Both the position numbers and the translations under genes were made by a program. Positions 6,878 through 63,759 of a stretch of 64,000 bases of DNA are shown piece by piece. The first letter of the stretch is position 1. Each line of letters begins with the position of its first letter. The notes beneath the pieces were generated by a model. It saw only the letters and a program-made list of their open reading frames with translations, did not search any database and was not told where the DNA came from. The stretch is from Candidatus Kaiserbacteria bacterium (GTDB taxonomy: Bacteria; Patescibacteriota; Minisyncoccia; Phycocordibacterales; UBA2100), in the NCBI GenBank assembly GCA_963767115.1, contig CAVYCR010000012.1, positions 16,598-80,597 of the forward strand, written 5' to 3'.

Positions 6878-8106
6878 ACGTGCCCAAAATCAGCCGCTAG
6901 TGTACAAGCTTTCGCGAGCGCTTGAGCGGCAAGAGAGAGGTCGAGGACAGTCGTTGCGCGTCCAAATGAGAAACGCAACGTGCTTGTCGCACGCCAGTGT
7001 AGTCCCGCCTCCTTCGCCAAAGCTTCGGCGGCCACGGCAAGCGCCTTCACTACGTGTGATTCCCGCGCCTCCCCTTCGCGGCAAGCACTTTTGGTCGAGA
7101 GCGCGAAGCCCGCATGGTCGAGCGCGAGGACGACGTATTCGCTGTTGATATTCGGTACTGAAATATTGAGGATGTGCGGGAGTGAATTCCGCAGATCGGT
7201 GTTGAAAACCACAGCAGGAATGAGTGCGGCGATTTCGCGTGCGAAGTCATTGCGAAGCTCGCGCAGACGTCTTCCTTCATCAACACGCTCGAGAGCGATG
7301 ATATCGAACGCTTTTGCAAAACCGGCGGCAAGCGCGACGTTTTCCGTCCCGGCACGCAATCCCCGCTCCTGCGAACCGCCAAAAGTGACCCCCGAGATAT
7401 CTGCACGATCGCTCATATACAAAGCGCCGATTCCCCGCGGACCATAGAGCTTACCGGAGTCTAGTGAGAGCAGGTCGACGCCAAGCGAGCGTGGATGTGC
7501 GGCTTCGTAGAGTGGCGCTTGGCCTGCGTCGCTATGCAAGAGGATCGTCGTGCCGTATACCTTCCCATGCGCGGCAATGACCCGTGCGATCCGTGCGAGC
7601 GGCTGGATCGTCCCGATCTCGCCGTTGCCCCAGCCGATCGATACAAAAACGGTTTCTTTACGAAGCAGTCGCTCTATTTCTTCAGGCATTATCACACCGT
7701 GCGCATCGCATGGCGCAAACGTGACTTCGCCGCCGAGGCGTTCGACTTCCCCATATGCTTCGAGCACCGAAGGATGCTCGATCGCGCTCACGATCCAATG
7801 CGTGTGCGCAAGCGTGCCACGCAGCAAAAGCTGCTTACGTGCAAAACCAAGGATCGCAAGGTTGTTGCCCTCGGTACCACCGGAGGTAAAAATTATTTCC
7901 CGCGGCTTGCAGCCGAGCTGCCGTGCCACAGACTCTCGTGCACGGGTCAGTGAGACATGTGCTTCCACGCCTTCTGTATGAATCGCTCCGGGATTACCAT
8001 ACTCTTGAGAGGCCACCTCATACGCACGTATTGCCTCAGGCAAGACCGGTGTCGAGCCCGCATAATCGAGGTAGATACGGGTTTTTATTGCTGTGTCATC
8101 AGACAT
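6874..8106 (-). CDS. cysteine desulfurase (class V aminotransferase, NifS/IscS-like)
   Basis: Start at ATG 8106 (MSDDTAIKTRIYLDYAGSTP…). Shows TSGGTEGNN, the PLP-lysine context SLDSGKLYGPRGIGALY and the active-site Cys context ALSTKSAC. Confidence 0.8.
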   Translation of the reverse strand: MSDDTAIKTRIYLDYAGSTPVLPEAIRAYEVASQEYGNPGAIHTEGVEAHVSLTRARESVARQLGCKPREIIFTSGGTEGNNLAILGFARKQLLLRGTLAHTHWIVSAIEHPSVLEAYGEVERLGGEVTFAPCDAHGVIMPEEIERLLRKETVFVSIGWGNGEIGTIQPLARIARVIAAHGKVYGTTILLHSDAGQAPLYEAAHPRSLGVDLLSLDSGKLYGPRGIGALYMSDRADISGVTFGGSQERGLRAGTENVALAAGFAKAFDIIALERVDEGRRLRELRNDFAREIAALIPAVVFNTDLRNSLPHILNISVPNINSEYVVLALDHAGFALSTKSACREGEARESHVVKALAVAAEALAKEAGLHWRATSTLRFSFGRATTVLDLSLAAQALAKACTLAADFGHV

Positions 8107-8198
8107 AAGCGTATTGTGTACGGAGGAGGAATTTTTTGCAAAGACCATGATTTTGAAGTATAATACTGCGATAAGGCCTATGGCTGAATACATCCGTT

Positions 8199-9697
8199 AT
8201 GTCTCAAAAGCAATCACACTCGATAGAGCGTCCTCCCGTCGTGGTGGTGATGGGACATGTCGACCACGGCAAGTCGACGCTGCTTGACTTCATCCGCCAA
8301 TCCAACACGGTCGCCAAGGAAGCCGGCGGCATCACGCAGCACGTCGCGGCATACGAAGTAGAACGCGAACGAGGTGGTTTGCACAAAAAGATAACCTTTA
8401 TCGATACCCCCGGCCACGCGGCCTTCAGCGCGATCCGCGCGCGCGGCGCCAACGTCGCCGACATAGCGATCCTCGTCGTCGCAGCTGACGACGGCGTCAA
8501 GGCGCAGACGCTCGAAGCGCTCGCGCAGATCCGCGAAGCGGGCATCCCCTTCATCGTCGCGATCAACAAGATCGACAAGCCAAACGCGAGCGTCGAGCGC
8601 ACGCAAGCGTCGCTCCTGGAGCAGCAGGTCTTCCTCGAAAACCTCGGCGGCGACGTGCCGTGGGCGGCAATCTCCGCGAAGGCCGGCACCGATGTCGAAG
8701 AATTGCTCGACCTGATCCTCCTCGTCGCCGAATTGAACGAGTTCAAAGCCGACCCTTCGCTAAGCGCATCCGGCTACGTCATAGAAGCGCATCGCGACCA
8801 GAAGCGCGGCATCGCAGCAACGCTCATCATCAAGAAGGAGCGCTCGAGAGCGGCATGGCAGTGCTTGCAGGAAGCGCGATCGCGCCGGTGCGCATCATGG
8901 AAGACTACGCCTCGCATACGTTGAAGTCCGCTTCTTTTTCGACACCGGTCACGCTCGTCGGCTTCGATACCCTGCCGGAAGTCGGCGCGGAATTTCAAAC
9001 ATTCAAGAACAAACGCGAGGCTGAAACAGCGCGCGGTGAAATCACCACAGCACGCGAGATCCCTACGGTCGGAGTATCGAGCGCGAGTCGGTACCTTCTG
9101 CCGGTCATCGTCCGCGCCGACGCAAGCGGCTCTCTCGAAGCGATCGCACACGAGATCGTGAAAATCGGCGACGAGCACGCTGGCGTCTCGATCGTACTCT
9201 CGGGCATCGGCAATATTTCGGAAAACGACGTGAAAACCGCGATGGCGGGCTCCACACAGGCGCTCCTCATCGGCTTCAACGTGACCATCGACCCCGTCGC
9301 CGAAGCACTCGCCCGCCAGCATGCGGTGCCGATCGAGACATTCGCCATCATCTACAAGCTCACCGAGCATCTTGAGGAGCGGCTCGCTGCGCTCAAGCCG
9401 AGCCGCACCGTCGAAGTGGTCTCCGGCGTCGCACGCATCCTGCGCCGCTTCAGCTCGCAGCACAACGTGCATGTGGTCGGCGGATCGGTGAGCGAAGGCA
9501 TCCTTGAGGTCCACAAAGACGTGCGCATCAACCGTCGCAAGATCATGATCGGCAAGGGCGAGATCATCAACATCCAGATCAACAAGCAAAATGCCTCGAA
9601 GGTCGAGGCAGGCAACGAATTCGGCGCGCAGATAGAAGCGACCTTTGAGATCGCCGAGGGTGATACGCTCGAATACATAACGACCAAAAAAGAATAA
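8199..9697 (+). pseudogene. infB: translation initiation factor IF-2 (short form) with one apparent -1 frameshift near 8833
   Basis: G-domain GHVDHGKSTLLD/DTPGH/NKID lies in frame 8199; domains II-IV (…GALESGMAVLAGSAIAPVRIM…EGDTLEYITTKKE) lie in frame 8660..9697. The junction aagaaGGAGcgc looks like loss of one G. The 1499-nt length needs +1 nt. Confidence 0.85.
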
Positions 9698-9822
9698 TAT
9701 GGTGGGACACTCGCGCGGAATAAGTATTTTGGGGTCTTTGCATCGCGGCGGCGCGAAACAGAGTTCTTTTTCAGCAGAAAAAGAACGACCCCAAAATACC
9801 TATTCCGCGCGAGTGTCCATAT
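9697..9822. repeat. long inverted-repeat element filling the infB-rbfA spacer
   Basis: Arms 9697-9736 and 9787-9822 (ATATGG(TG)GGACACTCGCGCGGAATAAGTATTTTGGGGTC vs its complement, few mismatches). The core contains the hairpin TTCTTTTT-CAGCAG-AAAAAGAA. Confidence 0.8.
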
Positions 9823-9826
9823 AGAT

Positions 9827-19034: not shown

Positions 19035-19230
19035 GGGCGGACAAGTACACAACAACGTTGCGGGGCAACGTTTTGTGACTTGTCCGGGCCGCAGCTCGTT
19101 TCGCGAGCTCGCGAAACGAGCGAGGCGGGGTCGCGGAAACTCTTTTGAGGCGACAAAAGAATTATCCGTGACGACATGAACTCTCCAAGGCGGGCCCGCG
19201 CAAATTTTCAGTAGAAAATTATGCGTGGGG
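19035..19230 (+). repeat. tRNA-trailer structured repeat, array B (three units: 19035-19090, 19122-19172, 19187-19230)
   Basis: Unit 1: GGCGGACAAGT…ACTTGTCC. Unit 2: GAGGCGGGGTCGCGG…CCGTGAC. Unit 3: AAGGCGGGCCCGCG-caaattttCAGTAGaaaattatg-CGTGGGG. Outer stems differ in sequence but stay complementary. Confidence 0.7.
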
Positions 19231-29547: not shown

Positions 29548-30334
29548 ATAGTGATGTCGGACATCGCTATTTATTGTATTTGGAATTGGATGATACAATA
29601 GTGTGTAATGGGGGTCGGGGTCTACCATGCTCTGAATCGCGGCGTCGACAAACGTCAGACTTTTATGTGTGAAATAGATTATGTGCGTTTCGTGCATGAT
29701 CTCTACGAATTTAACGACGTACATCCAGCAACAAACACATGGTATGAATTCAAAAATAGTGATGTCCGACATCCCTATATCGTGCGCGAACGGCAACCCA
29801 TCGTGCAGATTCATGCGTGGTCGCTTATGGAAAACCACTACCACTTGCTCCTCTCAGAAATCCGCGAAGGTGGCATTACGTCATTCTTACGAAAAATTAA
29901 TACCGGGTATACGAATTATTTCAATGACAAATACGAACGAAGCGGCGTATTGTTCCAAGGCAAGACGAAGAAGATTCTCATCCATGAGGAAGCTCATTTC
30001 TTACATATGCCGCATTACATACACTTGAATCCGCTCGATTATCTGGAAGGCGCAAGCGATTGGCGCTCATATGCCCTAGAAGACCCAGTTGCCGCGCTCG
30101 AGTATCTTTCTACCTATCGTTGGAGCAGCTATCTCGATTACTGCAACATGGATAATTTTCCTTCTATCATAGAGAAGGGTCTGTATTCGGATATATTTCC
30201 AGACTACGCCCCAACGATCAAATCCTACTTACAATCTTTAGATAGACCTTCAATCGATCTCGAACCAGTGACTTTGGAATAAAAATCAATACTATGGCTT
30301 ATTTCTTATATATTAGTGATGTCCGACATCACTA
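29548..30334 (+). mobile_element. RAYT/IS200-like Y1-transposase cassette 1 with flanking REP-type hairpins
   Basis: Hairpins ATAGTGATGTCgGACATCGCTAT (29548-29570) and TAGTGATGTCcGACATCACTA (30314-30334) flank the transposase in opposite polarity. A third copy (29756-29778) lies inside the CDS. Confidence 0.65.
29608..30282 (+). CDS. HUH/Y1 tyrosine transposase (REP-associated, IS200-like fold)
   Basis: 224 aa. YHALNRGVDKRQTF…, HUH motif MENHYHLLL, and catalytic-Tyr helix HMPHYIHLNP. Confidence 0.7.
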   Translation: MGVGVYHALNRGVDKRQTFMCEIDYVRFVHDLYEFNDVHPATNTWYEFKNSDVRHPYIVRERQPIVQIHAWSLMENHYHLLLSEIREGGITSFLRKINTGYTNYFNDKYERSGVLFQGKTKKILIHEEAHFLHMPHYIHLNPLDYLEGASDWRSYALEDPVAALEYLSTYRWSSYLDYCNMDNFPSIIEKGLYSDIFPDYAPTIKSYLQSLDRPSIDLEPVTLE

Positions 30335-30344
30335 TTTTTGATCA

Positions 30345-32856
<2,512 letters not shown>

Positions 32857-32899
32857 ACGTTGTTGACTTCATTATAGCAAAAACTGTTTCTTTGTGCAC

Positions 32900-33017
32900 G
32901 GCCACATACGAAAAGGGCCTGTTTTGCCGTCGCTATCTGGCCTTGCTAGGCCAGCGCTCGGACTCGGCCCCGCCGGGCCTGCGTAGACGGCAAAACAGGC
33001 CCTTTTCGTATGTGGCC
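32900..33017. repeat. long inverted-repeat element upstream of gyrA (perfect 32-bp arms)
   Basis: GGCCACATACGAAAAGGGCCTGTTTTGCCGTC (32900-32931) and its exact complement (32986-33017). The 54-nt core is about 80% identical to the reverse complement of the core of the element at 41228-41347. Confidence 0.85.
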
Positions 33018-33037
33018 GCCGCGAAGACTCGCGAGCA

Positions 33038-33334: not shown

Positions 33335-33955
33335 TCAGTTCGAAAGCACGACCACTTCGTTTTCCTTGTCGGCCACATCACGCGCCTTGAGCGTGAGCTT
33401 GTCGACTGGCACCACGGCTTCAGAAGCAGCCTCCTTGAGAAACGTCTTGAGCGATTTGTCGTCGTAGAGTATCGGGATCACGACCTTGGCCTCGAGCTTC
33501 ACCGCGAGCTTCTGAGCTTCTGAAGGATTGAGCGTACCCTCGCCGCCAACCGGAATGATGAGGATGTCCGGCGCATCCATCTCCAAGACTTCGGCAGGCA
33601 GGTCGAGATCGCCGAGCGCGCCGAGGTAGAGCACCGAGAGCCCGTCGAAGTGCACGGAGTACACAGTGTTGATCCGTCCGGCACCGCCGTACATCGAGCC
33701 CGAAGGAAAACCTGCGACCGTGATTTCCTTTACTTCGTATTCACCCGGGCCGGAGATCACGAAAGGTTGACGCTCTCCGCGAGCTGCTTCATCAGCACCG
33801 TTCATGTCGGGATGGTTGAGTGAGATGAAAGCGACGTCGGCGCCGAAGTTCACTGCCTTGAAACTCTTAGAGGCCTTTGAGACAGGGCCGAAAACAAGCG
33901 TCGTATCCCCTGCCGTAGCCTTCACGCACGCGCCTTCATGGAATGTCAGTATCAT
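33335..33955 (-). CDS. MBL-fold metal-dependent hydrolase (UPF0173-like)
   Basis: Start at ATG 33955 (MILTFHEGACVK…). …DVAFISLNHPDMNG…YLGALGD…ILIIPVGGEGTLNPSEA… The longer 383-aa ORF upstream is unsupported. Confidence 0.65.
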   Translation of the reverse strand: MILTFHEGACVKATAGDTTLVFGPVSKASKSFKAVNFGADVAFISLNHPDMNGADEAARGERQPFVISGPGEYEVKEITVAGFPSGSMYGGAGRINTVYSVHFDGLSVLYLGALGDLDLPAEVLEMDAPDILIIPVGGEGTLNPSEAQKLAVKLEAKVVIPILYDDKSLKTFLKEAASEAVVPVDKLTLKARDVADKENEVVVLSN

Positions 33956-34366
33956 GAGCGACAGTATAGCAGAAGAGGCCTCAAATACGCCATCTTTGGG
34001 CGATATCCACAGCCTGCTTGACAAATATTCATGAGGGTATATAACGCCACCACTCGAAATAGTTCGAGAATATTGAGGAGTCGGAAATGACGAAATCAGA
34101 AAAAGAAGCTCTTTCCCTTGAATTGGCCCCAACATCATCGCGCGGGACGGCGCCCAGTGCGCAAATGCAGACCTCGACGGTCGACGGCGGCGGTACCCAG
34201 AACGATCCCGCGGCGCGCCTGTTTCGTCGGCACGTGTCCGGCCTGATCGCTGCGCGCCGGCCCCTCTCTTCGGAGAGGGGTTTCTTTTTGTATATGCAAT
34301 CAAGTGATTCAAGTGATTAAAATAAGAGTAGTCAGGGACGGGGTATTTTTCATGAACAGATCTGCA

Positions 34367-34395
34367 TTGCAATTCATGCTCTTTTGCGTTACACT
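34367..34395 (+). promoter_or_regulatory. candidate sigma70-like promoter for rpsA (TTGCAA-17 nt-TACACT)
   Basis: TTGCAA at 34367-34372 and TACACT at 34390-34395, about 100 nt upstream of the rpsA start. Confidence 0.35.
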
Positions 34396-34491
34396 CTCCG
34401 AGCTCATTATTAATTGAGCGTGACAGGCTAACCCTGCTTCCCTTCCCGGCCCGGTTGCATGCGAAGCAAAACCTGAAACGCCCCAACTACA

Positions 34492-35622
34492 ATGACAGAC
34501 GAAACAAAGGCTCCCGAAATGGAGCTCGATAACGAGACAGTGGTCTCGTCAGACATTACTACCAAGGAAGGCCCGATGGCCGAACTCCTCAAGAACGCTG
34601 GCAAGCCGCCTGCGCTCGACGACGTGGTCGAAGGACCGGTCGTTGCTGTGGGCCGCGCGCGCGTCTTCATCGACCTGCATCCGTACGGCACCGGCATCAT
34701 CTACGGCCGCGAATACCTCTCGGCGCGCGAGACGTTGAAAAATGTAAACATCGGCGACGTCGTGACGGCGAAGGTCGTCGGCACCGACAACGCCGAAGGC
34801 TACGTCGAGCTCTCGCTGCGCGAGGCGCGCCAAGCCCTGATGTGGAGCGAAGCGGAAGTCGGCACTGCAGAAGAAGACTGTCTTCGAACTCGAGATCAGC
34901 GACGCCAACAAGGGCGGACTCATCATCAACTGGAACGGCATCCAAGGATTCTTGCCGGCATCGCAACTCGGCACAGCGCACTATCCGCGCGTCGCTGACG
35001 GCGACAAGGACAAGATCTTCGTCGAGCTCAAGCGCATGATCGGCACCAAGATCGAGGTCATGATCATCACCGCGAATCCCGAAGGAGCAGAAGCTGATCT
35101 TCAGCGAGAAGGGCGCGGCCCCGACCGAGCGCGGATCGCTCGTGGAGAAATACCATGTCGGCGATACGATCGACGGCATCGTCACCGGCGCGACGGAGTT
35201 CGGCGTCTTCGTGAAGCTCGAGGAAGGCCTCGAGGGCTTGGTGCACATCTCGGAGATGGACTGGGCGCTCGTCGAAAACCCGAAGACCCGCTACAAAGGC
35301 GGCGACGCGGTGAAGGTCAAGGTCATCGAGATCAAGGACGACAAGATCTCACTCTCGATCAAGGCGCTCTTGGAAGATCCGTGGAAATCCGCTGCCGCGA
35401 AGTACAAGAAGGACCAGCGCGTCGAGGCAGTCGTCATCAAGTACAACAAGCACGGCGCACTCGCCTCTATCGAGGAAGGTGTCGCGGGCTTGGTGCACAT
35501 CTCGGAGTTCGGCAAGCGAAGACGAGCTGCGCGCGAAGCTCGAGCTCGGCAAGGTGTATCCGTTCACGATCACCTTCTTCGAGCCGAAAGAACGCCGCAT
35601 GACTCTCAAACCCATCGCCTGA
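34492..35622 (+). pseudogene. rpsA: 30S ribosomal protein S1 (short, multi-S1-domain) with three apparent frameshifts
   Basis: S1-domain segments lie in three frames. Segments: …GPVVAVGRARVFIDL…; …LIINWNGIQGFLPASQLG…; …GDTIDGIVTGATEFGVFVKLEEGLEGLVHISEM…GVAGLVHISEFG; the tail …ELGKVYPFTITFFEPKERRMTLKPIA ends at TGA 35620-35622. Breaks are near 34860, 35090 and 35517. Net length is a multiple of 3. Confidence 0.85.
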
Positions 35623-36421
35623 GGTTAAACCTCGACAAATATAAGCCACATTTCCACCCGTCGAGGTTAAACCTCGACGGGTTTTGGCTTTTTGCGGTAT
35701 ACTATTTACATGGCGCGAGGGGTCACGCTAGCTCAGGGAGAGTTTTATCATATTTACAACCGCGGAACTGACAGGCGGCGAGTCTTTGAAACACATCATG
35801 ATTACGATCGTTTTTTAGCGCTTCTTTTCATTTGCAATCAGGCGCATCCGATTCAGAATCAAATTCGCGAACTGACATCAGATATATTTATTCTCGCAAG
35901 AAACACGGACACTATTGTTGATATAACCGCGTATTGTTTGATGCCCAATCATTTTCATATTGTAGTCAGGGAAAAGACGGACGGAGGTATTAGCAAATTC
36001 ATGCAAAAGGTCACGACCGGCTATACCATGTACTTCAATAAGAAATACGAGCGCACTGGAAGCTTGTTCGAGGGCACCTTCAAAGCACAACACGCGGCCG
36101 ACGACGAATATCTAAGGTACCTGCTCACCTATGTTCATTTGAATCCAGTAAAACTTTGGGATCCAGACTGGAAAACAAACGGGATTAGAGACCTAGTCAA
36201 GACCATGCAGGATTTGGACGAGTACAAATACTCGAGTTACAAGGAATACGTTGGGAAGTTTCGTCCTGAGAGTTCCATATTAAATAGGACTGTTCTGCCC
36301 GAATACTTTAATTTACCAAGAGATTTCAAGTCCGAGCTTATGGATTGGCTTACAATCCGAGGTTAAACCTCGACAACGTTAAGCCATTTTTTGGCATTTG
36401 AGGTTTAACCTCGACAAATAT
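35621..36421 (+). mobile_element. RAYT/IS200-like Y1-transposase cassette 2, bounded by 22-bp direct repeats and paired REP palindromes
   Basis: GAGGTTAAACCTCGACAAATAT (35621-35642) and GAGGTTTAACCTCGACAAATAT (36400-36421) bound the cassette. Further GAGGTTAAACCTCGAC copies lie at 35660-35678 and 36359-36374. The cassette sits exactly between the rpsA stop and the pth stop. Confidence 0.7.
35710..36366 (+). CDS. HUH/Y1 tyrosine transposase (REP-associated, IS200-like fold), paralog 2
   Basis: Start at ATG 35710 (MARGVTLAQGEFYHIYNRGTDRRRVF…). HUH motif MPNHFHIVV; Tyr helix YLLTYVHLNP. The stop codon lies inside a REP copy. Confidence 0.7.
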   Translation: MARGVTLAQGEFYHIYNRGTDRRRVFETHHDYDRFLALLFICNQAHPIQNQIRELTSDIFILARNTDTIVDITAYCLMPNHFHIVVREKTDGGISKFMQKVTTGYTMYFNKKYERTGSLFEGTFKAQHAADDEYLRYLLTYVHLNPVKLWDPDWKTNGIRDLVKTMQDLDEYKYSSYKEYVGKFRPESSILNRTVLPEYFNLPRDFKSELMDWLTIRG

Positions 36422-39428: not shown

Positions 39429-39821
39429 ATGCTTGACATAAGAGTCACACTGCGCCGCAAGATGTCGAGAGATGTCTTGCGGCGTATTCCTTTTGCGCGC
39501 ATAGCCGAACATATTTTGGGCCAGAAGTATGAGCTCTCCCTCGTCGTCTGCGGCGACGACCTCGCGCAGCAGATGAACAAGAAATATCGTAAGAAAGAGT
39601 ACAAACCCAACGTGCTCTCCTTCCCACTCGACAAAGATGAAGGCGAGATTTTCCTCAATGTCCGCAAAGCCGAGCGCGAAGCCAAAGAGTACGACGCGAC
39701 ATTCATGGCGCATCTCGCTTATCTCTATGTCCACGGATGTTTTCACCTACGCGGGCTTGATCATGGTGCGCAGATGGAGCGCCTCGAGGAACAAGTAATG
39801 AAACGATTCAAGTTGAAGTAA
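39429..39821 (+). CDS. ybeY: rRNA maturation endoribonuclease YbeY
   Basis: 130 aa with the zinc motif HGCFHLRGLDH. Confidence 0.8.
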   Translation: MLDIRVTLRRKMSRDVLRRIPFARIAEHILGQKYELSLVVCGDDLAQQMNKKYRKKEYKPNVLSFPLDKDEGEIFLNVRKAEREAKEYDATFMAHLAYLYVHGCFHLRGLDHGAQMERLEEQVMKRFKLK

Positions 39822-39824
39822 TTA

Positions 39825-39949
39825 TCGAGACAGATTGCCCCCTGAGAATTCTCGCAGCCGAGGACTCGAACCCGCAGACCGCGAAGCGGGCGTGAGGGCG
39901 CTTGCGTCCCGCAGGCAAGAGAATTCTCAGGGGGCAATCTGCCTCGATT
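39825..39949. repeat. long inverted-repeat element filling the ybeY-ftsA spacer (30-bp arms, 1 mismatch)
   Basis: ATCGAGACAGATTGCCCCCTGAGAATTCTC (39825-39854) pairs with 39920-39949. The core contains CAGCCGAGGACTCGAACCC, a module shared with the tRNA-trailer repeats. Confidence 0.8.
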
Positions 39950-40038
39950 ATCCACGGTTTTTTTTGAATACGTGGCGTAATGCCGTACAATGCTTCATAA
40001 GAACCGCAAGTTCTTGTTTGAGTGCGGTGCTTTTAAGT

Positions 40039-41214
40039 ATGGCCAAAGGGAAAATTTACACTGGAATAGATATCGGCACGTATCACGTCAAGGTCGTGAT
40101 CGCAAGCGCACCAGAGCGTCCCGATGTACCGATGCAAATACTTGGCACCGGCACTGCCTCGAGCAAAGGCATGCGGCACGGTTACATCATCGACCAAGCC
40201 GAGGCAAGCCGTTCGATCCGCGAAGCTCTGATGCGCGCGCAGGGCGCCGCAAAAGTCTCGGTGAAGAGCGCGCGTGTATCCGTCGGCGGAGTTTCTCTGG
40301 ACGAGGTGCGCTCGACCGGGGACATCTCACTGACTGCTTCGGGTGGCATCGTGACAGAGCGTGAAATAGCACGGGTCAAGAACGAAGCCGAGAAGCGCGC
40401 TTCAAGCAAGCTTGCCAACCGCACCGTCATTCACGTGATCCCGATCGAGTACCGTCTCGACGGCCAGAAGATCCTCGGCACGCCGGAGGGCATGCAAGGT
40501 ACGAAGCTCTCCCTCGATACACTCCTGGTCACTATGCTCAGCCAGCACCACGACGATCTCATCGCCGCTGTCGAGAAAACCGGCGTCGAAGTCGAAGATG
40601 TGATGGCTTCCCCGCTTGCCGCGAGCCTCGTCACCCTTACCAAAGCGCAGAAGACCGCGGGCGTCGTCCTTGCAAACATCGGCGCGGAGACACTCTCGAT
40701 CATTGTTTTCGACAACGACATCCCGATCTCCTTGAAGATGTTCCCGGTCGGCAGTAGCGACATTACCAACACGATCGCACTTTCCTTCCAGATACCACTC
40801 TCGGAAGCAGAACAAATGAAACGAGGCGCGGTCACCGGCTCCGACATTCCGCAGAAGAAAATGCAGACGATCGTAAGCAACCGGCTGAAGGATATGTTTG
40901 AACTCGTGAATGCGCATCTCAAATCGATCGGCCGGGCACGACTTCTCCCTGCAGGTATCGTGATCACGGGCGGTGGCAGCGGCCTTATGAATGCATCAGA
41001 TGTCGCACGTGCCGTACTGAAGCTGCCTTCACAGATCGGCCACGTAGGATTCATGACACGCACGTCTTCTGTTGACGCTACGTGGGCCGTAGCATATGGA
41101 CTCTGTCGTTGGGGTTTTGCCGATGATATGTCAGGCCCCACACATTCGATGCTCGATGTCGTTGGAAGTGCTTGGGATGCACTCAAACAAACACTTCGAT
41201 CTCTGCTCCCATAG
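40039..41214 (+). CDS. ftsA: cell division protein FtsA
   Basis: Start at ATG 40039 (MAKGKIYTGIDIGTYHVKVVIA…). Actin-like ATPase motifs; …AGIVITGGGSGL… The ORF-track extension upstream runs through the inverted repeat. Confidence 0.85.
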   Translation: MAKGKIYTGIDIGTYHVKVVIASAPERPDVPMQILGTGTASSKGMRHGYIIDQAEASRSIREALMRAQGAAKVSVKSARVSVGGVSLDEVRSTGDISLTASGGIVTEREIARVKNEAEKRASSKLANRTVIHVIPIEYRLDGQKILGTPEGMQGTKLSLDTLLVTMLSQHHDDLIAAVEKTGVEVEDVMASPLAASLVTLTKAQKTAGVVLANIGAETLSIIVFDNDIPISLKMFPVGSSDITNTIALSFQIPLSEAEQMKRGAVTGSDIPQKKMQTIVSNRLKDMFELVNAHLKSIGRARLLPAGIVITGGGSGLMNASDVARAVLKLPSQIGHVGFMTRTSSVDATWAVAYGLCRWGFADDMSGPTHSMLDVVGSAWDALKQTLRSLLP

Positions 41215-41227
41215 ATCAAAAATACGG

Positions 41228-41347
41228 GAGACATATCGGGCCACGCAGTATTTTGCCGGCTACGCAGGCGCGACGGCGCCGAGTCCGAGCGCTGGGTCAG
41301 CAGACCCAGATAGCGACGGCAAAATACTGCGTGGCCCGATATGTCTC
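41228..41347. repeat. long inverted-repeat element in the ftsA-ftsZ spacer (perfect 31-bp arms)
   Basis: GAGACATATCGGGCCACGCAGTATTTTGCCG (41228-41258) and its exact complement (41317-41347). Core: GCTACGCAGGCGCGACGGCGCCGAGTCCGAGCGCTGG-GTCAGCAGAC-CCAGATAGCGA. Confidence 0.85.
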
Positions 41348-41439
41348 TATTGTTATAGATATGAAGTGCATTTTTGAATGCGACGCCTATACTTCGGTGT
41401 CAAGTTTGCTTTTCGAAAAATCTGCTATGATGTCGACAT

Positions 41440-42698
41440 ATGAAGCAAGTTAAGTCCGACGTCGAATCATTTGCTCGAATCCGCGTCATGGGCGTCGGCG
41501 GCTCCGGCGGCAACGCCGTCAACCACATGGTCGCACGCACGTCCAGGGCGTCGAATTCATCGCGGTCAACACCGACGCGCAAGACCTCCACAAGTGCAAG
41601 GCGCCAAGAAGAAGATCCACATCGGCAAGACCCTCACCCGCGGCCTCGGCACGGGCATGAACCCGGACCTCGGCAAGCAAGCCGCGGAAGAGACGCGCGA
41701 GGAGATCCAGGAAGCGATCAAAGGCTCCGACATGGTGTTCATCACCTGCGGCATGGGCGGCGGCACCGGCACCGGCGCTGCACCGGTCGTCGCGAAGATC
41801 GCGCGCGAGCTCGGCGCACTCACCGTCGGCGTCGTGACAAGGCCGTTCGTCTTCGAAGGCGCACAGCGCCTGCGCCTCGCCGAGCAAGGCCTCGCAGAGC
41901 TTCAAGAAGGCAGTCGACGCGCTCATCATGATCCCCAACGACAAGCTTCTCCAGATCGTCTCTCGCGACACTGGCATCAAGAACGCCTTCGCGATGTGCG
42001 ACGACATCCTGAAGCAAGCAGTCGAGGGTATCTCCGACCTCATCACCACGACCGGCATCATCAACGTCGACTTCGCCGACGTCCGCGCGATCATGCAAAA
42101 CGCTGGCTCCGCGCTCATGGGCATCGGCATCGCAATCGGCGAGAAGCGTGCCGAGAACGCCGCACGCGCCGCTATCAACTCCCCGCTTCTCGAAGTCTCG
42201 ATCCACGGTGCCAAGGGCGTGCTCTTCTCGATCGCCGGCGGCGACGACCTCGGTATGCTCGAAGTGCAGGATGCGGCCAACGTCATCACCGAGGCGATCG
42301 ATCCGGACGCAAAGGTCATCTTCGGCGCCGTCACCGACGAGACCCTCAAGAAAGGTCAGGTCCGCGTCACCGTCATCGCCACCGGCTTCCCCGAGACAAG
42401 CCAATTGACGCAACAACAGCGACCTGTGAGTACTCCGAGCGCGCCAGCAAGCGTATTTTCCAGCTCACAACGCTTCAGTGCCAAGAAGGATCAGGATGTA
42501 CCACCCGCACGCGCCGAGCGCGAGTCAAAAGAACCCAGGAAGATCATCGATGCGGGCGTTGATCGACCCGAGAAAGACAAGTCAGTCAAAGAGATCAAGA
42601 TTGCGCCGGCAGAGCCGACGCATGATGCGACATCACAAAGCGATGAGGATTCTGATGATGCATGGGGTGGCCTGCCTTCGTTCCTGCGCAGAAAGTAA
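41440..42698 (+). pseudogene. ftsZ: cell division GTPase FtsZ with three apparent frameshifts
   Basis: Frame 1: [32 protein letters not shown]. Frame 2: …[21 protein letters not shown]…[16 protein letters not shown]…. Frame 3: …[12 protein letters not shown]…[10 protein letters not shown]…. Breaks are near 41540, 41605 and 41905. The first two look like single-base losses in short A runs. Confidence 0.85.
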
Positions 42699-42799
42699 AT
42701 AGCTTTCAGGTTCTAGTTGTCAGCTTTCAGCACACATCGTGCAAATGCGGTATACTACGCGCATTATTACTGAAAGCTGAAACCTGACACCTGAAAGTT

Positions 42800-43722
42800 A
42801 TGTATGATCTGATTATCGTGGGCGGCGGACCAGCAGGGACAAGTGCGGCAGTGTACGCCGCACGCAAGCGTCTCAAGACACTCTTCATTACTTCTGAGTG
42901 GGGCGGTCAGAGCACTGTCTCGACAGAGATCCAAAACTGGATCGGATCTACAGCAATCTCCGGTGCCGATCTCGGCAAGCGATTGCGCGAGCACGTGGAG
43001 AAATACGCAGGCGACGCACTCACTATCCACTCGGGCACAACTGCCGAGACACTCGTCTTGCATGACGACATGGTCGAGGTAAAGACTGCAGACGACACAA
43101 GCTATCAGGGCCGCACGCTTCTCGTAGCCTCGGGCGCAAGCCGCCGCAAGTTGGAGTGCCCGGCGCCCTAGAGTTCGACCAGAAAGGTCTCACCTACTGT
43201 GCGAGCTGCGACGGCCCGCTTTTTGCAGGAGCTGATGTCGCGGTCATCGGCGGCGGAAACGCTGCCTTCGAGACCGCGCTCCAGTTGCTGGCGTATTGCA
43301 AGAGTGTCACGCTCGTCAATCGCACTGAGACCTTCCGCGCCGACGAGATCACCGTTGCTGCCGCGACCGCACACGAAAACATGCGCATCATCACCAATGC
43401 AGAAATCCTCGCTGTGGAGGGCGAAAAGTTCGTCTCCGGGATCCGCTACAAAGATGGAAAGACGAACTCAGAGATTGCACTTCCCGTTACCGGCGTCTTC
43501 GTCGAGATCGGCCTTCTGCCCAACACGGGATGGATCGGTACCTCGCTTGAGAAGAATCCAATCGGTCAGATCAAGGTCGACCCACGCACGCAGAAAGCAT
43601 CGCATGCGCGCGTTTGGGCCGCAGGAGATTGCACCGACGGTCTCTACCATCAGAACAACATCGCCGCCGGCGACGCTGTGAAGGCACTTGAGGATATTTA
43701 CTTGTTTGTACACAAGGGATAA
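42800..43722 (+). pseudogene. trxB: thioredoxin-disulfide reductase with one apparent -1 frameshift near 43150
   Basis: N-terminal half 42800..43171 (IIVGGGPAGTSAAVYAAR…) and C-terminal half 43156..43722 (…YCASCDGPLF…VIGGGNAAFE…AAGDC…). The junction ttGGAGtgccc is consistent with loss of one G. Length 923 nt. Confidence 0.85.
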
Positions 43723-43730
43723 GAAGTGCG

Positions 43731-43938
43731 GGCACATTCGCAGCCACAGGGTTTTGCGAACATGCCGCAATAGCTTGCGTAACGACCCCTAAAATAAAAG
43801 CGCCTTGCTAGGCGTTTTTATTTTCCCCTACCGTATGATGTGGGGATGTGATATCTGCTGCGCGAGGTTCGCAAAACCCTGTGGCTGCGAATGTGCCGAG
43901 GCGTGAGTAGGTATTCATATTTGCGAACCTCGCGCAGC
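43731..43938. repeat. long inverted-repeat element downstream of trxB with a second, overlapping inverted repeat
   Basis: Perfect 31-bp arms GGCACATTCGCAGCCACAGGGTTTTGCGAAC (43731-43761) and 43867-43897. Inner hairpin AAAAGCGCC-ttgctag-GGCGTTTTT. A second pair, 43857-43875 and 43920-43938 (GCTGCGCGAGGTTCGCAAA), shares the GTTCGCAAA segment. Confidence 0.8.
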
Positions 43939-44034
43939 ACACTCTCCATCAATGATCAGTACTGTAGTGGATGTAGATGATACATTATTAATCAGTAACA
44001 GTTCGCAAACACTGATACTCTTCGCGCCCTCAAT

Positions 44035-45167
44035 TCAAAACACATCAGTAATGGGTGAGCCCAAGCCAGTCACATAATCATAATGCGCTCGCGCGCTGCA
44101 GAGATAACCGCAAGCGCCGTTGGTACCGCTCATGATGTCCCTGAAGTAGTCGCTCGCGTTTGCCGAGAGCTTGTCCGAATAGAGGTTCTTGAGGCTGATG
44201 CCTTTGCCGAGTGCCGTGATCGCTGCCCATTGCGGCGAACCGGCCGAGGTCCCGCCGACTTCCTCCCATTTGCCCGCGTGATAAATCGGGAAACCTGATG
44301 GACGGATCAGCATCATAAGAGACATCGGGGATCGCGCGCATACCGCCGGATTTGGGTATCTCGTATGAGGATTGGAAACGTCGGTTCTTTTTCGTACGCC
44401 GAGACGCCACCTCCCGAGCCGGCCCATGCCGTTTCTTTGGCGAACGATCCGTCTGGCCTCGTCATAAGAGATGTGCCGCCGACCCCAATGACATCCGGTG
44501 AGCTCGCCGGCCAGCTGGCGCCCGCACCGTTGTCGCCGGAAGAAGCAAAGAATACAGCGCCGTATTTCGAGACAAAATGCGAATCGAGCGAAGTCTCTTC
44601 GGGGAATTCCGCGCCTCCCCAGCTCATCGAGATCGCGACGACGTCGCTGCGGCTTGTCGCATAATCGACTGCGGCGAGCAGGTTGGCGCCGCTCTGAGTC
44701 TTCGCTTCGACCAAGAGGATCTTGGCGCTTGGCGCGATCGCATGCGCCCATTCGATATCGAGCGAGGTCTCGGTGTCCCAGCCGCTATTGTCGCTTCTCG
44801 CTCGCACTCATCAGATGCTGTTCGAAGCAGCCATCGGCTTTGGTGCATGCGGGCAGCCCAAACTGCTTGCTAAAAGCCGCAAGATCGGCTTCCGCGCTCT
44901 TGTCATCGTAAGCGCCGATGATCGCGATCGTGCCTTTGCCGCCGCTTGACGGAAGATTATAGAGAGCTTTTTGATCTCGGTCGGCGTCATACCGACCGGC
45001 ACCTTGGTCTTCGCATAGACATGTATCGGCGGCGTACCTTTGTAATTGGAGAAATGATATGCAGCTTCAGCGGTATGCGGCATGAGCGCCATACATATAC
45101 ACGCGATCACTCCGGCAAATACCGTTGTACTAATGTCTAGTCTCCAAAATAATGACCCCATATACAA
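44035..45167 (-). pseudogene. stand-alone S53 (sedolisin-like) peptidase, paralog of the N-terminal domain of 19264..22848, frame broken at least four times
   Basis: Signal peptide + …MTPTEIKKL | YNLPSSGGKGTIAIIGAYDD… | …SGWDTETSLDIEWAHAIAPSAKILLVEA…SSGDNGAG…GVGGTS… | …MRAIPDVSYDADP… | …VGGTSAGSPQWAAITAL…GLGSPITDVF lie in different minus frames. Confidence 0.8.
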
Positions 45168-61493: not shown

Positions 61494-63629
61494 ATGGAGC
61501 CACAAAAGTCAGTTCCCGAGGCATTTCTCAAGCCCTATAATCCTCAGGAAAATGAGGACGCGATATATACGCTTTGGAACGACAGCGGTTATTTTAATCC
61601 CGACAACCTTCCCGGAAACAGGAGCGAGCCATTTACCATCATCATGCCGCCGCCAAACGCCAACGGCTCGTTGCACGCCGGCCATGCGCTTTTCGTTACG
61701 CTGCAAGACATCATGATCCGCTTCGCCCGTATGAGGGGCAAGAGGGCGATGTGGGTGCCGGGCGCTGATCACGCAGGATTTGAGACGCAGGTCGTGTACG
61801 AAAAGAAATTGGAAAAAGAAGGCCGTTCGCGCTTCGACATGAAGCCTGATGAGCTTTACAAGGAGATTCTTGATTTCACACTTGAAAATAAATCATTCAT
61901 GGAGGGCCAGATCCGTCAGCTCGGTGCGAGCTGCGATTGGTCGCGCGAAGTATTCACCCTCGACGAGCGCGTGATCCGCACCGTTTACGACACGTTTCAG
62001 AAACTTTCTGATGACGGCTTGCTCTATCGCGGCGAGCGCATCGTCAACTGGTGCCCGAAGCACCAGACGTCGCTGAGCAATCTTGAGACCGAGCGTGAGA
62101 CGCGCACGGATCCTTTCTACTACCTCACATACGGACCATTCACGATTGCCACCGCGCGCCCCGAGACGAAGTTTGGCGACAAGTACGTGGTCATTCACCC
62201 CGACGATCCGCGTTACGCGCAATACAAAGACGGCGATGTCTTCGATCTTGAATGGATCAACGGCCCTATCAAGGCCACACTCATCAAAGACGACGTAATC
62301 GACACGGCGCTCGGCACTGGTGCAATGACGATCACGCCCTGGCACGACCCTATCGACTTCGAGATCGCGCAGCGGCATCACTTGCCCTACGAACAGGTCA
62401 TCGATTGGCGCGGCAAATTACTTCCTATCGCAGGAGAATTCGCCGGTATGAACATCAAGGAGGCACGCGGCAAGATCATCGAGAAACTGCAGAGCAAAGG
62501 CCTCGTCGAGAAAATCGATGACAAATACGTGCACGAAGTGCCGGTCTGCTACAAATGCGGTCGCGAGATCGAGCCGCAGGTGCGCCCGCAGTGGTTCGTG
62601 AATATGAAGCCGCTTGCCGCGCGCGCGATCGAAGCGGTAAAGAGCAAAGAGGTGCATGTACTTACCGAAAACCATGAACGAATCCTCTTGAATTGGCTCG
62701 GAAACATCCAGGATTGGAATATTTCCCGCCAGATCGTCTGGGGCATTCCGATCCCTGCGTGGCAAAAAGGCGATGAATGGAAGATCGGCGAGGAGTGCCC
62801 CGGCGAAGGCTGGACGCGCGATCCCGATACCTTCGACACATGGTTCTCATCGGGCCAATGGCCTTTTACTACGCTCGGATATCCCGACCACAGCGATTTC
62901 AAAACGTATTATCCGACTTCAGTAATGGAAACGGCCGCCGACATCCTCTTCTTCTGGGTAGCGCGCATGATCATGCTCGGGCTGTATCGCACGGGCCAAG
63001 TCCCCTTCAAATACGTGTACTTGCACGGGCTCGTGCGTGATGCTAAAGGCATCAAGATGAGCAAATCGAAGGGCAACGTGATCTCGCCACTCGAAGTATC
63101 AAATGAATACGGCACCGATGCACTGCGCATGGGACTTATCGTAGGCAATACACCCGGCACCGACCTCAACCTCGATACGCGCAAGATCGGCGCGTACAAG
63201 AAGTTCGCCAACAAGCTCTGGAACGTCACTCGCTTCGTCCTGACTGCAAGCGCTCCTTTTGACCTTTCGACTCACCCGCCTCTTACGGAGAGTGATGATG
63301 CGCTCTACAAGCAATTCGAGGGCATCGCAATCGATATCACGGCCGACATCGACAACTTCCGCTTCCACTTGGCTGCCGAGAAGATTTACCATTATATCTG
63401 GCACAATTTCGCCGATGAGATCATCGAGACAAGCAAGCCGGTGCTCGATACCGGCACCGCTGAGGAGAAAACTTCTCGCGCATGCCTGTTGTATATGATC
63501 CTGCGCGATTCGCTCAAGCTTCTGCACCCTTTCATGCCCTTCGTCACCGAGGCCATCTGGCAGCAATTGCCGTATAAGGATTCGGATTTATTGATGGTAG
63601 CCGAGTGGCCCGCAAAATCGGGCTCATAG
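61494..63629 (+). CDS. valS: valine--tRNA ligase (short form without long C-terminal coiled coil)
   Basis: 711 aa. HIGH-type PPPNANGSLHAGHAL, …VPGADHAGFETQ…, …NWCPKHQTSLSNLE…, and KMSKSKGN. Confidence 0.85.
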   Translation: MEPQKSVPEAFLKPYNPQENEDAIYTLWNDSGYFNPDNLPGNRSEPFTIIMPPPNANGSLHAGHALFVTLQDIMIRFARMRGKRAMWVPGADHAGFETQVVYEKKLEKEGRSRFDMKPDELYKEILDFTLENKSFMEGQIRQLGASCDWSREVFTLDERVIRTVYDTFQKLSDDGLLYRGERIVNWCPKHQTSLSNLETERETRTDPFYYLTYGPFTIATARPETKFGDKYVVIHPDDPRYAQYKDGDVFDLEWINGPIKATLIKDDVIDTALGTGAMTITPWHDPIDFEIAQRHHLPYEQVIDWRGKLLPIAGEFAGMNIKEARGKIIEKLQSKGLVEKIDDKYVHEVPVCYKCGREIEPQVRPQWFVNMKPLAARAIEAVKSKEVHVLTENHERILLNWLGNIQDWNISRQIVWGIPIPAWQKGDEWKIGEECPGEGWTRDPDTFDTWFSSGQWPFTTLGYPDHSDFKTYYPTSVMETAADILFFWVARMIMLGLYRTGQVPFKYVYLHGLVRDAKGIKMSKSKGNVISPLEVSNEYGTDALRMGLIVGNTPGTDLNLDTRKIGAYKKFANKLWNVTRFVLTASAPFDLSTHPPLTESDDALYKQFEGIAIDITADIDNFRFHLAAEKIYHYIWHNFADEIIETSKPVLDTGTAEEKTSRACLLYMILRDSLKLLHPFMPFVTEAIWQQLPYKDSDLLMVAEWPAKSGS

Positions 63630-63744
63630 GTATTTCGAACCTCGCCTGCGAAATCAACAGCACTACAGGGTACGGCCGTAGTGGGGTGCATAGCATTGTA
63701 CTCATAGTACGGTTCGCAAATACCTATGAGCCCGATTTTGCGGG
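63610..63744. repeat. long inverted repeat overlapping the valS stop codon
   Basis: CCCGCAAAATCGGGCTCATAGGTATTT(G)CGAACC at 63610-63642 pairs with 63711-63744 (one indel). Shares the GGTATTTGCGAACC string with the 43.9-kb element. Confidence 0.7.
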
Positions 63745-63759
63745 CTATAATGGCACTCA

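Follow-up and report, generated by a model that had tools for sequence, protein, structure and literature searches.

Hairpin elements with freely varying stems and an almost invariant three-way-junction tip are inserted between genes of Patescibacteria

Background

The genomes of Patescibacteria are tiny, tightly packed and usually thought to be poor in repeats. Here we describe a family of hairpin elements in a 64-kb stretch of DNA from a Candidatus Kaiserbacteria bacterium (contig CAVYCR010000012.1, positions 16,598 to 80,597; hereafter the window), in which an earlier note, made from the letters of the DNA alone, had pointed to six elements with near-perfect inverted arms in spacers of essential operons. 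Copies of this family are inserted DNA, gained and lost between close relatives. Their stem of 20-35 bp is free to vary in sequence while it stays complementary, and in type I (see below) it carries a tip that is an almost invariant 74-nt three-way junction, the folding strand being the one with the purine-rich unpaired core. We give an even chance to the reading that these are REPIN-like, structure-recognised, non-autonomous mobile elements of Patescibacteria, and neither classical miniature inverted-repeat transposable elements (MITEs) nor simply elements of messenger RNA (mRNA). The main class of rival explanations is that of a functional RNA.

Results

Distribution and consensus structure of the family

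A total of seven hairpin elements lie in the window (A, B, C, D, E, E2 and F; Table 1), six of which are the long inverted repeats reported earlier and were recovered by a repeat scan at the coordinates then given. For element D, in the ftsA/ftsZ spacer, the predicted RNA fold has an energy of -90.4 kcal/mol versus -44.0 +/- 3.8 for dinucleotide shuffles (z = -12.2), and folding it as DNA yields z = -12.1. One representative genome per species was scanned with a degenerate pattern based on A, B and D, which gave 37 matches in 35 genome stretches, all but one of them from metagenome-assembled genomes (MAGs) of Patescibacteria labelled Kaiserbacteria, Paceibacterota, Parcubacteria, Nomurabacteria or 'Saccharibacteria'. 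The lone match beyond this phylum, in a Verrucomicrobiaceae genome, receives no score from the covariance model and was set aside as chance. By its FtsA homologues, the window organism itself belongs among Kaiserbacteria/Paceibacterota. The same pattern was matched by 58 metagenome stretches and was absent from the viral contigs scanned. When the covariance model was run over all collected sequence it returned 111 matches, 91 of them distinct copies of type I, the type of A, B and D; one MAG alone has at least 14 of this type. Many of the loci collected come from groundwater at Hainich or Rifle.

Elements of the family measure about 90-135 nt. Their long helix, P1, has a variable outer part, and its invariant inner part UUUUGCCGUC pairs with GACGGCAAAA. 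The consensus tip consists of a 2-bp P2a, a 5-bp P2 with a GACG loop, the conserved linker GAGACCGAGCG, and a 7-bp P3 with an AGCA loop and a GC/GC step extension, after which comes AUAGC. The core lacks symmetry, P2 with its GACG loop being unlike P3 with its AGCA loop, and the model gives it 118 bits on one strand versus 35-39 on the other; its unpaired positions are purine-rich on the model strand. The outer 10-25 bp of the arms are unrelated between copies and between genomes, and the centre is conserved. Stems come in three forms. About 34 of the 91 copies have a tandem G.A motif (5'-CGAG/5'-CGAG and a bulged pyrimidine) in the stem, a 6x6 internal loop (GUCGAA/GAGAAA) is typical of a Kaiserbacteria MAG, and the window copies and many others are fully paired.

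The pairing is strongly supported by covariation. In the 91-copy alignment, which was fitted to the covariance model and hence to a model that favours pairing, 96.8% of cells are paired, versus 67.8% in column shuffles and 35-49% when the 3' partners are slid, and 857 cells are changed on both sides, versus 247 and 133-211, respectively. Double changes occur in 32 of the 36 pairs, and an independent MAFFT alignment of 38 copies gives the same pairing picture. The compensatory evolution of arms and core helices first proposed from the window copies is thus borne out on the whole set of distinct copies, with covariation support among the strongest obtainable by sequence alone.

At gathering score, Rfam 15 identified only nine transfer RNAs (tRNAs) in the window, and permissive scans of the element regions and five loci returned chance microRNA-like hairpins and one unrelated sub-threshold leader match outside the element. 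A blastn search of plasmids with element D gave no match. The searchable literature on hairpins, repeats or structured RNA of Patescibacteria, Kaiserbacteria and Parcubacteria does not describe the family, which is apparently undescribed both there and in Rfam 15. The idea that the elements are guide RNAs was also considered and rejected, as the variable arms of D and B are without matches in viral contigs.

Orientation and position relative to genes

Genes around the copies were called with a codon-usage model trained on the collected loci (designated L plus a number), and three window copies were corrected by hand because frameshifts mislead the gene caller. Between co-directional genes, about 36 copies are antisense and 17 sense, with a further 12 copies between convergent and 5 between divergent genes. 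Many antisense copies are flanked by open reading frames (ORFs) of several hundred codons and are therefore not gene-calling artefacts. Within the window, A, B, C, D and F are sense to their co-directional neighbours and E lies between convergent genes, so that the co-orientation with transcription proposed by the earlier note holds for all five such window copies but fails for the family. Orientations are mixed over a few kilobases in the window, L036 and L063; replication direction therefore does not set orientation, and we rejected an orientation directed by replication.

In the commonest layout, a gene on the other strand has its stop codon close to the 3' end of the element, at a median distance of about 2 nt, and copies generally lie closer to the stop of the upstream gene than to the start of the next. 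No terminator signature was found, flanking A/T runs of at least 4 nt being present in a small minority of every orientation class; an intrinsic terminator, which needs a U-tract directly behind a GC-rich hairpin on the transcribed strand, was rejected on this ground. In four genomes a type I copy lies a few nt past the stop codon of the RNase III gene rnc and before smc (L017 7274-7391, L019 7700-7817, L054 3895-4011 and L097 4662-4779). The arms of these copies are unrelated, all four are antisense to rnc, and the C-terminus of the RNase III reads ...GEGRSKQEAEQ..A..KAL.AKGW*. The presence of a long duplex beside the gene for a duplex-cutting enzyme may be a coincidence or regulatory.

A fixed strand is selected to fold

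Non-Watson-Crick pairs were counted in the ten variable P1 pairs of the model alignment. Pairs of the G.U or U.G type exceed those of the A.C or C.A type by 62 to 20 over all distinct copies and by 57 to 20 with one count per cluster of related arms. The excess is on the same strand in antisense (26 to 11), sense (7 to 3) and convergent copies (11 to 0). Because each G.U pair reads as A.C on the opposite strand, one fixed strand is selected to fold, whatever the strand of the host gene, and that strand is the one with the purine-rich unpaired core. The asymmetric core (118 versus about 38 bits) decides which strand the model takes, and this choice therefore cannot cause the wobble excess. By our reasoning, a deamination bias linked to transcription or replication would push the opposite way in antisense copies. 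The wobble asymmetry rules out a purely duplex-DNA palindrome and argues against a role limited to the neighbouring mRNA.

These observations bear on the rival explanation of a cis-acting RNA structure in operon mRNAs that was recruited by the host, for instance for RNase III processing, for transcript stability or as an insulator, and that would act in the mRNA strand. We consider it unlikely: with about two thirds of the copies between co-directional genes being antisense family-wide, the asymmetric core would appear as its complement in most mRNAs, and the wobble excess of antisense copies stays on the model strand (26:11) where an mRNA would show A.C instead. The lack of a U-tract terminator signature, and gain and loss between relatives as close as 94% identity (see below), also argue against it. 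Nevertheless, it accounts for the sense orientation of all five window copies between co-directional genes, for the location of copies directly past stop codons and upstream of conserved promoters, for the strong covariation, for the purine-rich unpaired core on the model strand, for the purifying selection in place, and for the copy that four genomes have downstream of the RNase III gene.

A different proposal, which we regard as quite unlikely, is that the three-way junction is a new functional RNA, i.e. a self-processing ribozyme or an RNA-protein scaffold, and that the model strand would be the transcribed one irrespective of how the neighbouring genes are oriented. In that event the element would either replicate at the RNA level or serve the host, for instance by halting or degrading transcripts that invade genes at their 3' ends. 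Such a function would explain why two thirds of the copies are directed against a gene on the other strand, towards its stop codon, and it is consistent with the conserved junction, the purine-rich unpaired positions and conservation in place.

Insertion polymorphism between close relatives

The orthologous pth-lepB-hisS-like-rpsU-ybeY-ftsA-ftsZ-trxB region was compared in relatives whose FtsA is 80-94% identical to that of the window. The ftsA/ftsZ gap measures 79-87 nt in all five relatives, one of which has a 94% identical FtsA, versus 225 nt in the window, and the extra DNA is element D, which lies between the ftsA stop and a promoter-like box common to all the sequences. Likewise, the ybeY/ftsA gap measures 91-105 nt in four relatives versus 217 nt in the window, and the extra DNA is element C. 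In the ybeY/ftsA spacer of the 94% relative, a type I copy with another stem and another core stands at the very point of element C, just 5' of a conserved TATCCACGG (47.5 bits, the element being incomplete at the contig end). L037 has a copy in its pth/lepB spacer, where the window and L038 have none. Almost identical arms and internal loops are found at different loci or contigs of one MAG (L003, L010, L033). Furthermore, nine orthologous empty spacers contain neither a stable hairpin (z -1.7 to +0.8) nor any arm-like sequence, and the arms are therefore brought in by the insert.

The empty spacers, together with the arm sequences and internal-loop motifs common to different loci of one MAG, make it very improbable that the conserved tip alone is mobile and homes into the loops of pre-existing post-stop hairpins, with the arms being host sequence. 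This idea would otherwise fit the arms, which are unique and often perfect at each locus, the unconserved outer ends, the placement of copies directly past stop codons and the reuse of the same spacer by different family members.

Small size, lack of coding capacity, inverted ends, many copies and polymorphic insertions are also what would be expected of a classical MITE, which derives by deletion from an insertion sequence, has terminal inverted repeats bound by a DDE transposase and leaves target-site duplications on insertion. In this regard, three window copies have short AT-rich direct repeats at their flanks (ATTAT for C, ATAGAT for the extended D and ATATG for A), and non-motif direct repeats of at least 6 nt flank 7 of 82 copies, versus 0-2 in controls, with variable offsets. 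The evidence for target-site duplication is weak because there is no exact pair of filled and empty sites at nucleotide resolution; family-wide no duplication is consistent, and the earlier note had seen none. Outer ends that vary around a nearly invariant centre are the reverse of a MITE, no parent insertion sequence or nearby transposase was found in the collected sequence, and strand-specific wobble and conservation in place are unexpected for decaying copies recognised as duplexes. We therefore hold a classical MITE to be improbable. Of the outcomes that the earlier note had named as contrary to its own account, insertion polymorphism in orthologous spacers and an orientation not tied to the mRNA strand were largely what we observed, but a plain MITE was not.

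Conservation of retained copies

Several copies occupy the same position in different genomes: between rnc and smc (L017, L019, L054, L097), after rpmE (L047, L058), beside tpiA (L005, L020), between trmD and a KH-domain gene (L016, L017) and in four other pairs. The flanking proteins of genomes that share copy positions are 56-87% identical. Between orthologous copies most helix differences are double compensatory changes, as in the pair L043/L065 with 2 double changes, 2 G.U changes and 0 pair-breaking changes, and only 0-4 of 22 unpaired core sites differ; four-fold degenerate sites of the flanking genes are far less conserved, at 41-59% identity (75% for L007/L088). For pairs with clearly related arms, namely L043/L065, L007/L088 and L002/L091, this pattern shows purifying selection at the locus, on pairing and unpaired core alike. 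At loci with unrelated arms, such as rnc/smc, repeated insertion into the same small spacer is possible.

Search for a mobilising enzyme

No parent autonomous insertion sequence with the same ends was found in the roughly 740 kb of collected sequence. The window itself encodes a RAYT/IS200-like Y1 (HUH) transposase of 218 aa at 35710-36366, with the motif PNHFHIVV and a match to Pfam Y1_Tnp (E = 2.8e-9); its score with the NCBIfam model for the REP-associated tyrosine transposase is 31.9 bits, below the cut-off of 80. A hairpin with GAGGTTAAACCTCGAC is present in four copies around this gene (unit 35621-36415) and nowhere else in the window. As L037 and L038 lack this unit between pth and their S1-domain gene, it is itself a recent insertion. 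The sole homologue among the collected loci, 30% identical, is encoded on the element-bearing contig L087, where it is flanked by two identical 40-nt perfect palindromes (7340-7379 and 8102-8141), which suggests a separate REP-like system in the same bacterial group. No RAYT adjoins any of 93 de-duplicated copies.

HUH enzymes of the IS200/IS605 and RAYT families recognise a folded single strand. This habit, and the occurrence of a Y1_Tnp/REP-associated transposase-like gene in the window with its homologue on L087, are what would favour the elements being REPINs proper, mobilised by the window's own enzyme. We see little likelihood of this, as the gene and its homologue are each flanked by unrelated hairpins or palindromes of their own, the gene is an insertion missing in close relatives, and none adjoins the copies surveyed. 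Moreover, orientations that are mixed over a few kilobases fit poorly with targeting to the lagging-strand template, and the asymmetric core is not a REP doublet. On present evidence, the window RAYT was thus rejected as the mobiliser, its own flanking hairpins being different and the gene never adjacent to copies.

Elements of the window

The hairpins of the window and the parts of element D are collected in Table 1. The near-perfect arms reported earlier are perfect in B, F and the inner 31 bp of D, and nearly so in A, C and E.

Table 1. Positions of the hairpin elements of the 64-kb window, their arms and the parts of element D
Feature	Position	Strand	Description	Basis or score
Element A	9697..9826	+	type I; AT-rich P3, GGGG/CCCC inner P1	covariance model, 79.4 bits on +
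Element A, arms	9705-9739/9784-9818		35 nt, 94% complementary	repeat scan
Element B	32895..33022	-	type I	covariance model, 118.4 bits on -
Element B, arms	32899-32931/32986-33018		33/33 paired	repeat scan
Element C	39821..39951	+	distant relative, different core	covariance model, only 24 bits, E = 1.3e-4
Element C, arms	39821-39853/39919-39951		33 nt, 94% complementary	repeat scan
Element D	41215..41360	+	type I, ftsA/ftsZ spacer	118.4 bits on + versus 35.5 on -
Element D, extended arms	41215-41258/41317-41360		44 nt, 86% complementary	repeat scan
Element D, 5' arm of P1	41228..41258	+	outer 23 nt variable; inner part conserved, UUUUGCCG
Element D, 3' arm of P1	41317..41347	+	31/31 Watson-Crick pairs with 41228-41258
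Element D, three-way-junction core	41259..41316	+		alignment, consensus fold, pair counts
Element D, P2a	41262-63/41283-84	+		consensus fold
Element D, P2	41267-71/41276-80	+	loop GACG
Element D, linker	between P2 and P3	+	GAGUCCGAGCG
Element D, P3	41292-98/41303-09	+	loop AGCA; core ends in AUAGCGA
Element E	43731..43897	-	type II core (UUUUGCGAACCUCGCGCAGCA ... GUUCGCAAAA); long P3-like hairpin with AGCA loop
Element E, arms	43731-43769/43859-43897		39 nt, 92% complementary	repeat scan
Element E2	43920..44012	+	degenerate second type II copy, back-to-back with E
Element F	63608..63745	+	type II
Element F, arms	63608-63635/63718-63745		28/28 paired	repeat scan

The copies at 9.7, 32.9 and 41.2 kb (A, B and D) constitute type I and have the 74-nt three-way-junction core in common; A, D and the minus-strand reading of B align end to end, with two covarying hairpins in the core. 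As had been noticed, the cores of B and D resemble each other only as reverse complements, at about 83% identity (about 80% in the original estimate), and the differences in their hairpins are compensatory changes. In P2a, the A-U of the window copies compensates for the U-A of copies elsewhere. Type II comprises E on the minus and F on the plus strand, with the common core UUU(U/G)CGAACCUCGCGCAGCA ... AUACGG ... GUUCGCAAA, which is also present in E2 and in the groundwater contig L049. The 63.6-kb copy at the valS stop, F, had been offered as a probable further member; its core is shared with E. The covariance model of type I gives 118 bits to D and to B, 79 to A, 24 to C and 17 to F, and does not recognise E. 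Because cores and model scores differ in this way, we treat the six window copies as one superfamily with three subtypes; the single family of the earlier note does exist but is not homogeneous. Of the termini that it took to be shared, the inner TTTTGSSG is not found in C, and the outer GRSMCA holds in this lineage but not in other genomes. C differs from A, B and D in its core but not in its outer end.

The gene contexts are those originally described, i.e. infB/rbfA, upstream of gyrA, ybeY/ftsA, ftsA/ftsZ, after trxB and the valS stop. The plus-strand flanking genes encode IF-2, RbfA, YbeY, FtsA, FtsZ, TrxB and a ValS-like class I tRNA synthetase, and those on the minus strand encode GyrA and an MBL-fold protein. 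Element A takes up all of the spacer between the stop of infB (9695-9697) and the start of rbfA (9827), and B lies between the MBL-fold gene (33335-34486, minus) and gyrA (start near 32856, minus), to which it is sense. C lies between the ybeY stop and the promoter region of ftsA, with its ATTAT at both flanks (39821-25 and 39947-51), and D begins 1-8 nt past the ftsA stop (41212-41214), upstream of a conserved promoter-like box of ftsZ. E is situated between the convergent trxB (plus) and subtilase (minus) genes. The 5' arm of F (63608-63629) supplies the end of valS, namely its final five codons and its stop codon (..WPAKSGS* versus ..WPVHENK* in a relative), and the insertion of F hit the extreme 3' end of the valS coding sequence. 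Beyond the window, in L063 (2355-2595; the same stretch as L075), two copies stand 5 nt apart in opposite orientation, like E and E2, and such back-to-back pairs may be a recurrent arrangement.

The window assembly contains frameshifts: ftsZ (41440-42698) runs over three frames, and trxB (42800-43722), gyrA (30345-32856) and the subtilase gene (44035-45167) are split. The relatives have these genes intact, with an FtsZ of 415-418 aa in L037, L038 and L041. Indel errors of the assembly are the likeliest cause of the split genes, with pseudogenes as the alternative; the arms of the elements pair without indels despite the frameshifts.

Other repeats in the window

Four further repeats were observed. 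A 42-nt imperfect inverted repeat at 42689-42811 (76% complementary, CTGAAAG/CTTTCAG-rich) covers both the stop of ftsZ and the start of trxB; it does not resemble the hairpin family, and it is not an insertion because the gap length equals that of the relatives. The 3' part of the tRNA at 1441-1523 is repeated in inverted form behind it (1504-1529 versus 1564-1589; 26 nt, 81% complementary), and tRNA and repeat together form a 40-bp hairpin including the T-arm (1441-1589), which could be an integration scar or a terminator. A 27-nt inverted repeat (29546-29572/29754-29780; 93% complementary) with the palindrome GATGTCSGACATC in each arm has its arms 181 nt apart and brackets the start of an ORF at 29608. 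Finally, a 28-nt perfect palindrome, GCTCGTTTCGCGAGCTCGCGAAACGAGC, at 19094-19121 lies about 150 nt upstream of a 1194-aa subtilase-like ORF at 19264.

Discussion

The reading to which we give an even chance is that of a REPIN-like element recognised by its structure. A single-stranded unit, either single-stranded DNA or RNA, would be recognised at its conserved tip by a trans-acting protein and would be copied or moved as REP and REPIN elements are, and not via the duplex terminal repeats of classical MITEs. Insertion would be tolerated only in the few free bases past stop codons, in either orientation. A read-through transcript of either orientation would then contain a long duplex that might act as an RNase III substrate or as a block to 3' exonucleases; such cleavage or blockage would separate the cistrons, which is a possible reason why the host tolerates or keeps the copies. 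The duplexes of REP and Correia elements are RNase III substrates or exonuclease blocks, and the proposed effect on neighbouring transcripts follows this precedent. From the fixed folding strand we infer, in addition, a protein that recognises and copies it.

Several observations weigh against this proposal. The wobble asymmetry fits RNA and single-stranded DNA alike, and the strong conservation in place suits a host-selected RNA equally well. Copies in one contig often have unrelated perfect arms, which is unusual for copy-and-paste repeats. All-against-all clustering of the flanking ORFs recovered only housekeeping orthologues and no recurrent transposase or reverse transcriptase beside the copies, nor were split or cargo-bearing copies found in the collected sequence. 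The only HUH gene of the window is bracketed by unrelated hairpins, two on each side, all with GAGGTTAAACCTCGAC, and the comparison of relatives yielded no exact pair of filled and empty sites at nucleotide resolution.

If the family is indeed a mobile element recognised by structure, the REPIN type of lifestyle extends to a distant phylum and has a new architecture there; if it is an RNA, it represents a new and widespread class, in a lineage whose RNA biology has hardly been studied by experiment. In either case, this is a multi-copy family inside essential operons (infB-rbfA, ybeY-ftsA-ftsZ, gyrA), whose tip is better conserved than the proteins of its hosts. Two Logan short-read contigs of close relatives, L001 (end 4667) and L040 (start 1), end at or just inside the hairpin, so that the elements evidently break de Bruijn assemblies and counts from MAGs will be too low. 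The elements also produce spurious ORFs, and the covariance model could serve in their annotation.

Comparison with known systems

None of the families of Rfam 15 matches at gathering score, and this family differs from them in being multi-copy and in either orientation; it resembles them in having several helices supported by covariation, along with invariant nucleotides in the junction and loops. Integron attC sites, which measure about 60-140 nt overall and have a centre of variable length, are recognised on a specific strand as single-stranded DNA. The present family shares these dimensions and is like them in conserving structure over sequence and in the folding of one specific strand. 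However, its alignment is devoid of the R''/R' boxes (RYYYAAC / GTTRRRY) and of the extrahelical-base pattern, and its copies are accompanied by neither an integrase nor cassette arrays, the neighbours being syntenic housekeeping genes and operons.

MITEs of the Correia, ERIC and RUP type and the Rickettsia palindromic elements are likewise non-coding inverted-repeat insertions of 100-150 nt in spacers that are co-transcribed with neighbouring genes, and the stems of Correia elements are RNase III substrates. The way in which F rewrites the 3' end of the valS coding sequence is reminiscent of the Rickettsia elements. In contrast to these families, which keep their terminal repeats and regular duplications (TA for Correia), the present family has variable ends, an invariant centre and irregular duplications.

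A close parallel to our preferred reading is the REP/REPIN-RAYT system of Enterobacteria and Pseudomonas. Unlike it, the present family has an asymmetric three-way junction in place of two inverted REPs, stems that differ between copies of one genome, a host among the Patescibacteria, and a RAYT-like gene flanked by a different palindrome and not by the dispersed family sequence. REPINs are short, non-coding palindromic hairpin repeats with many extragenic copies and long persistence (bioRxiv 10.1101/2021.07.10.451892). Our elements are similarly short non-coding hairpin repeats in many copies outside genes, and in both systems copies persist for long at orthologous places, a folded single strand is thought to be what is recognised, and a RAYT-like gene is present in the genome.

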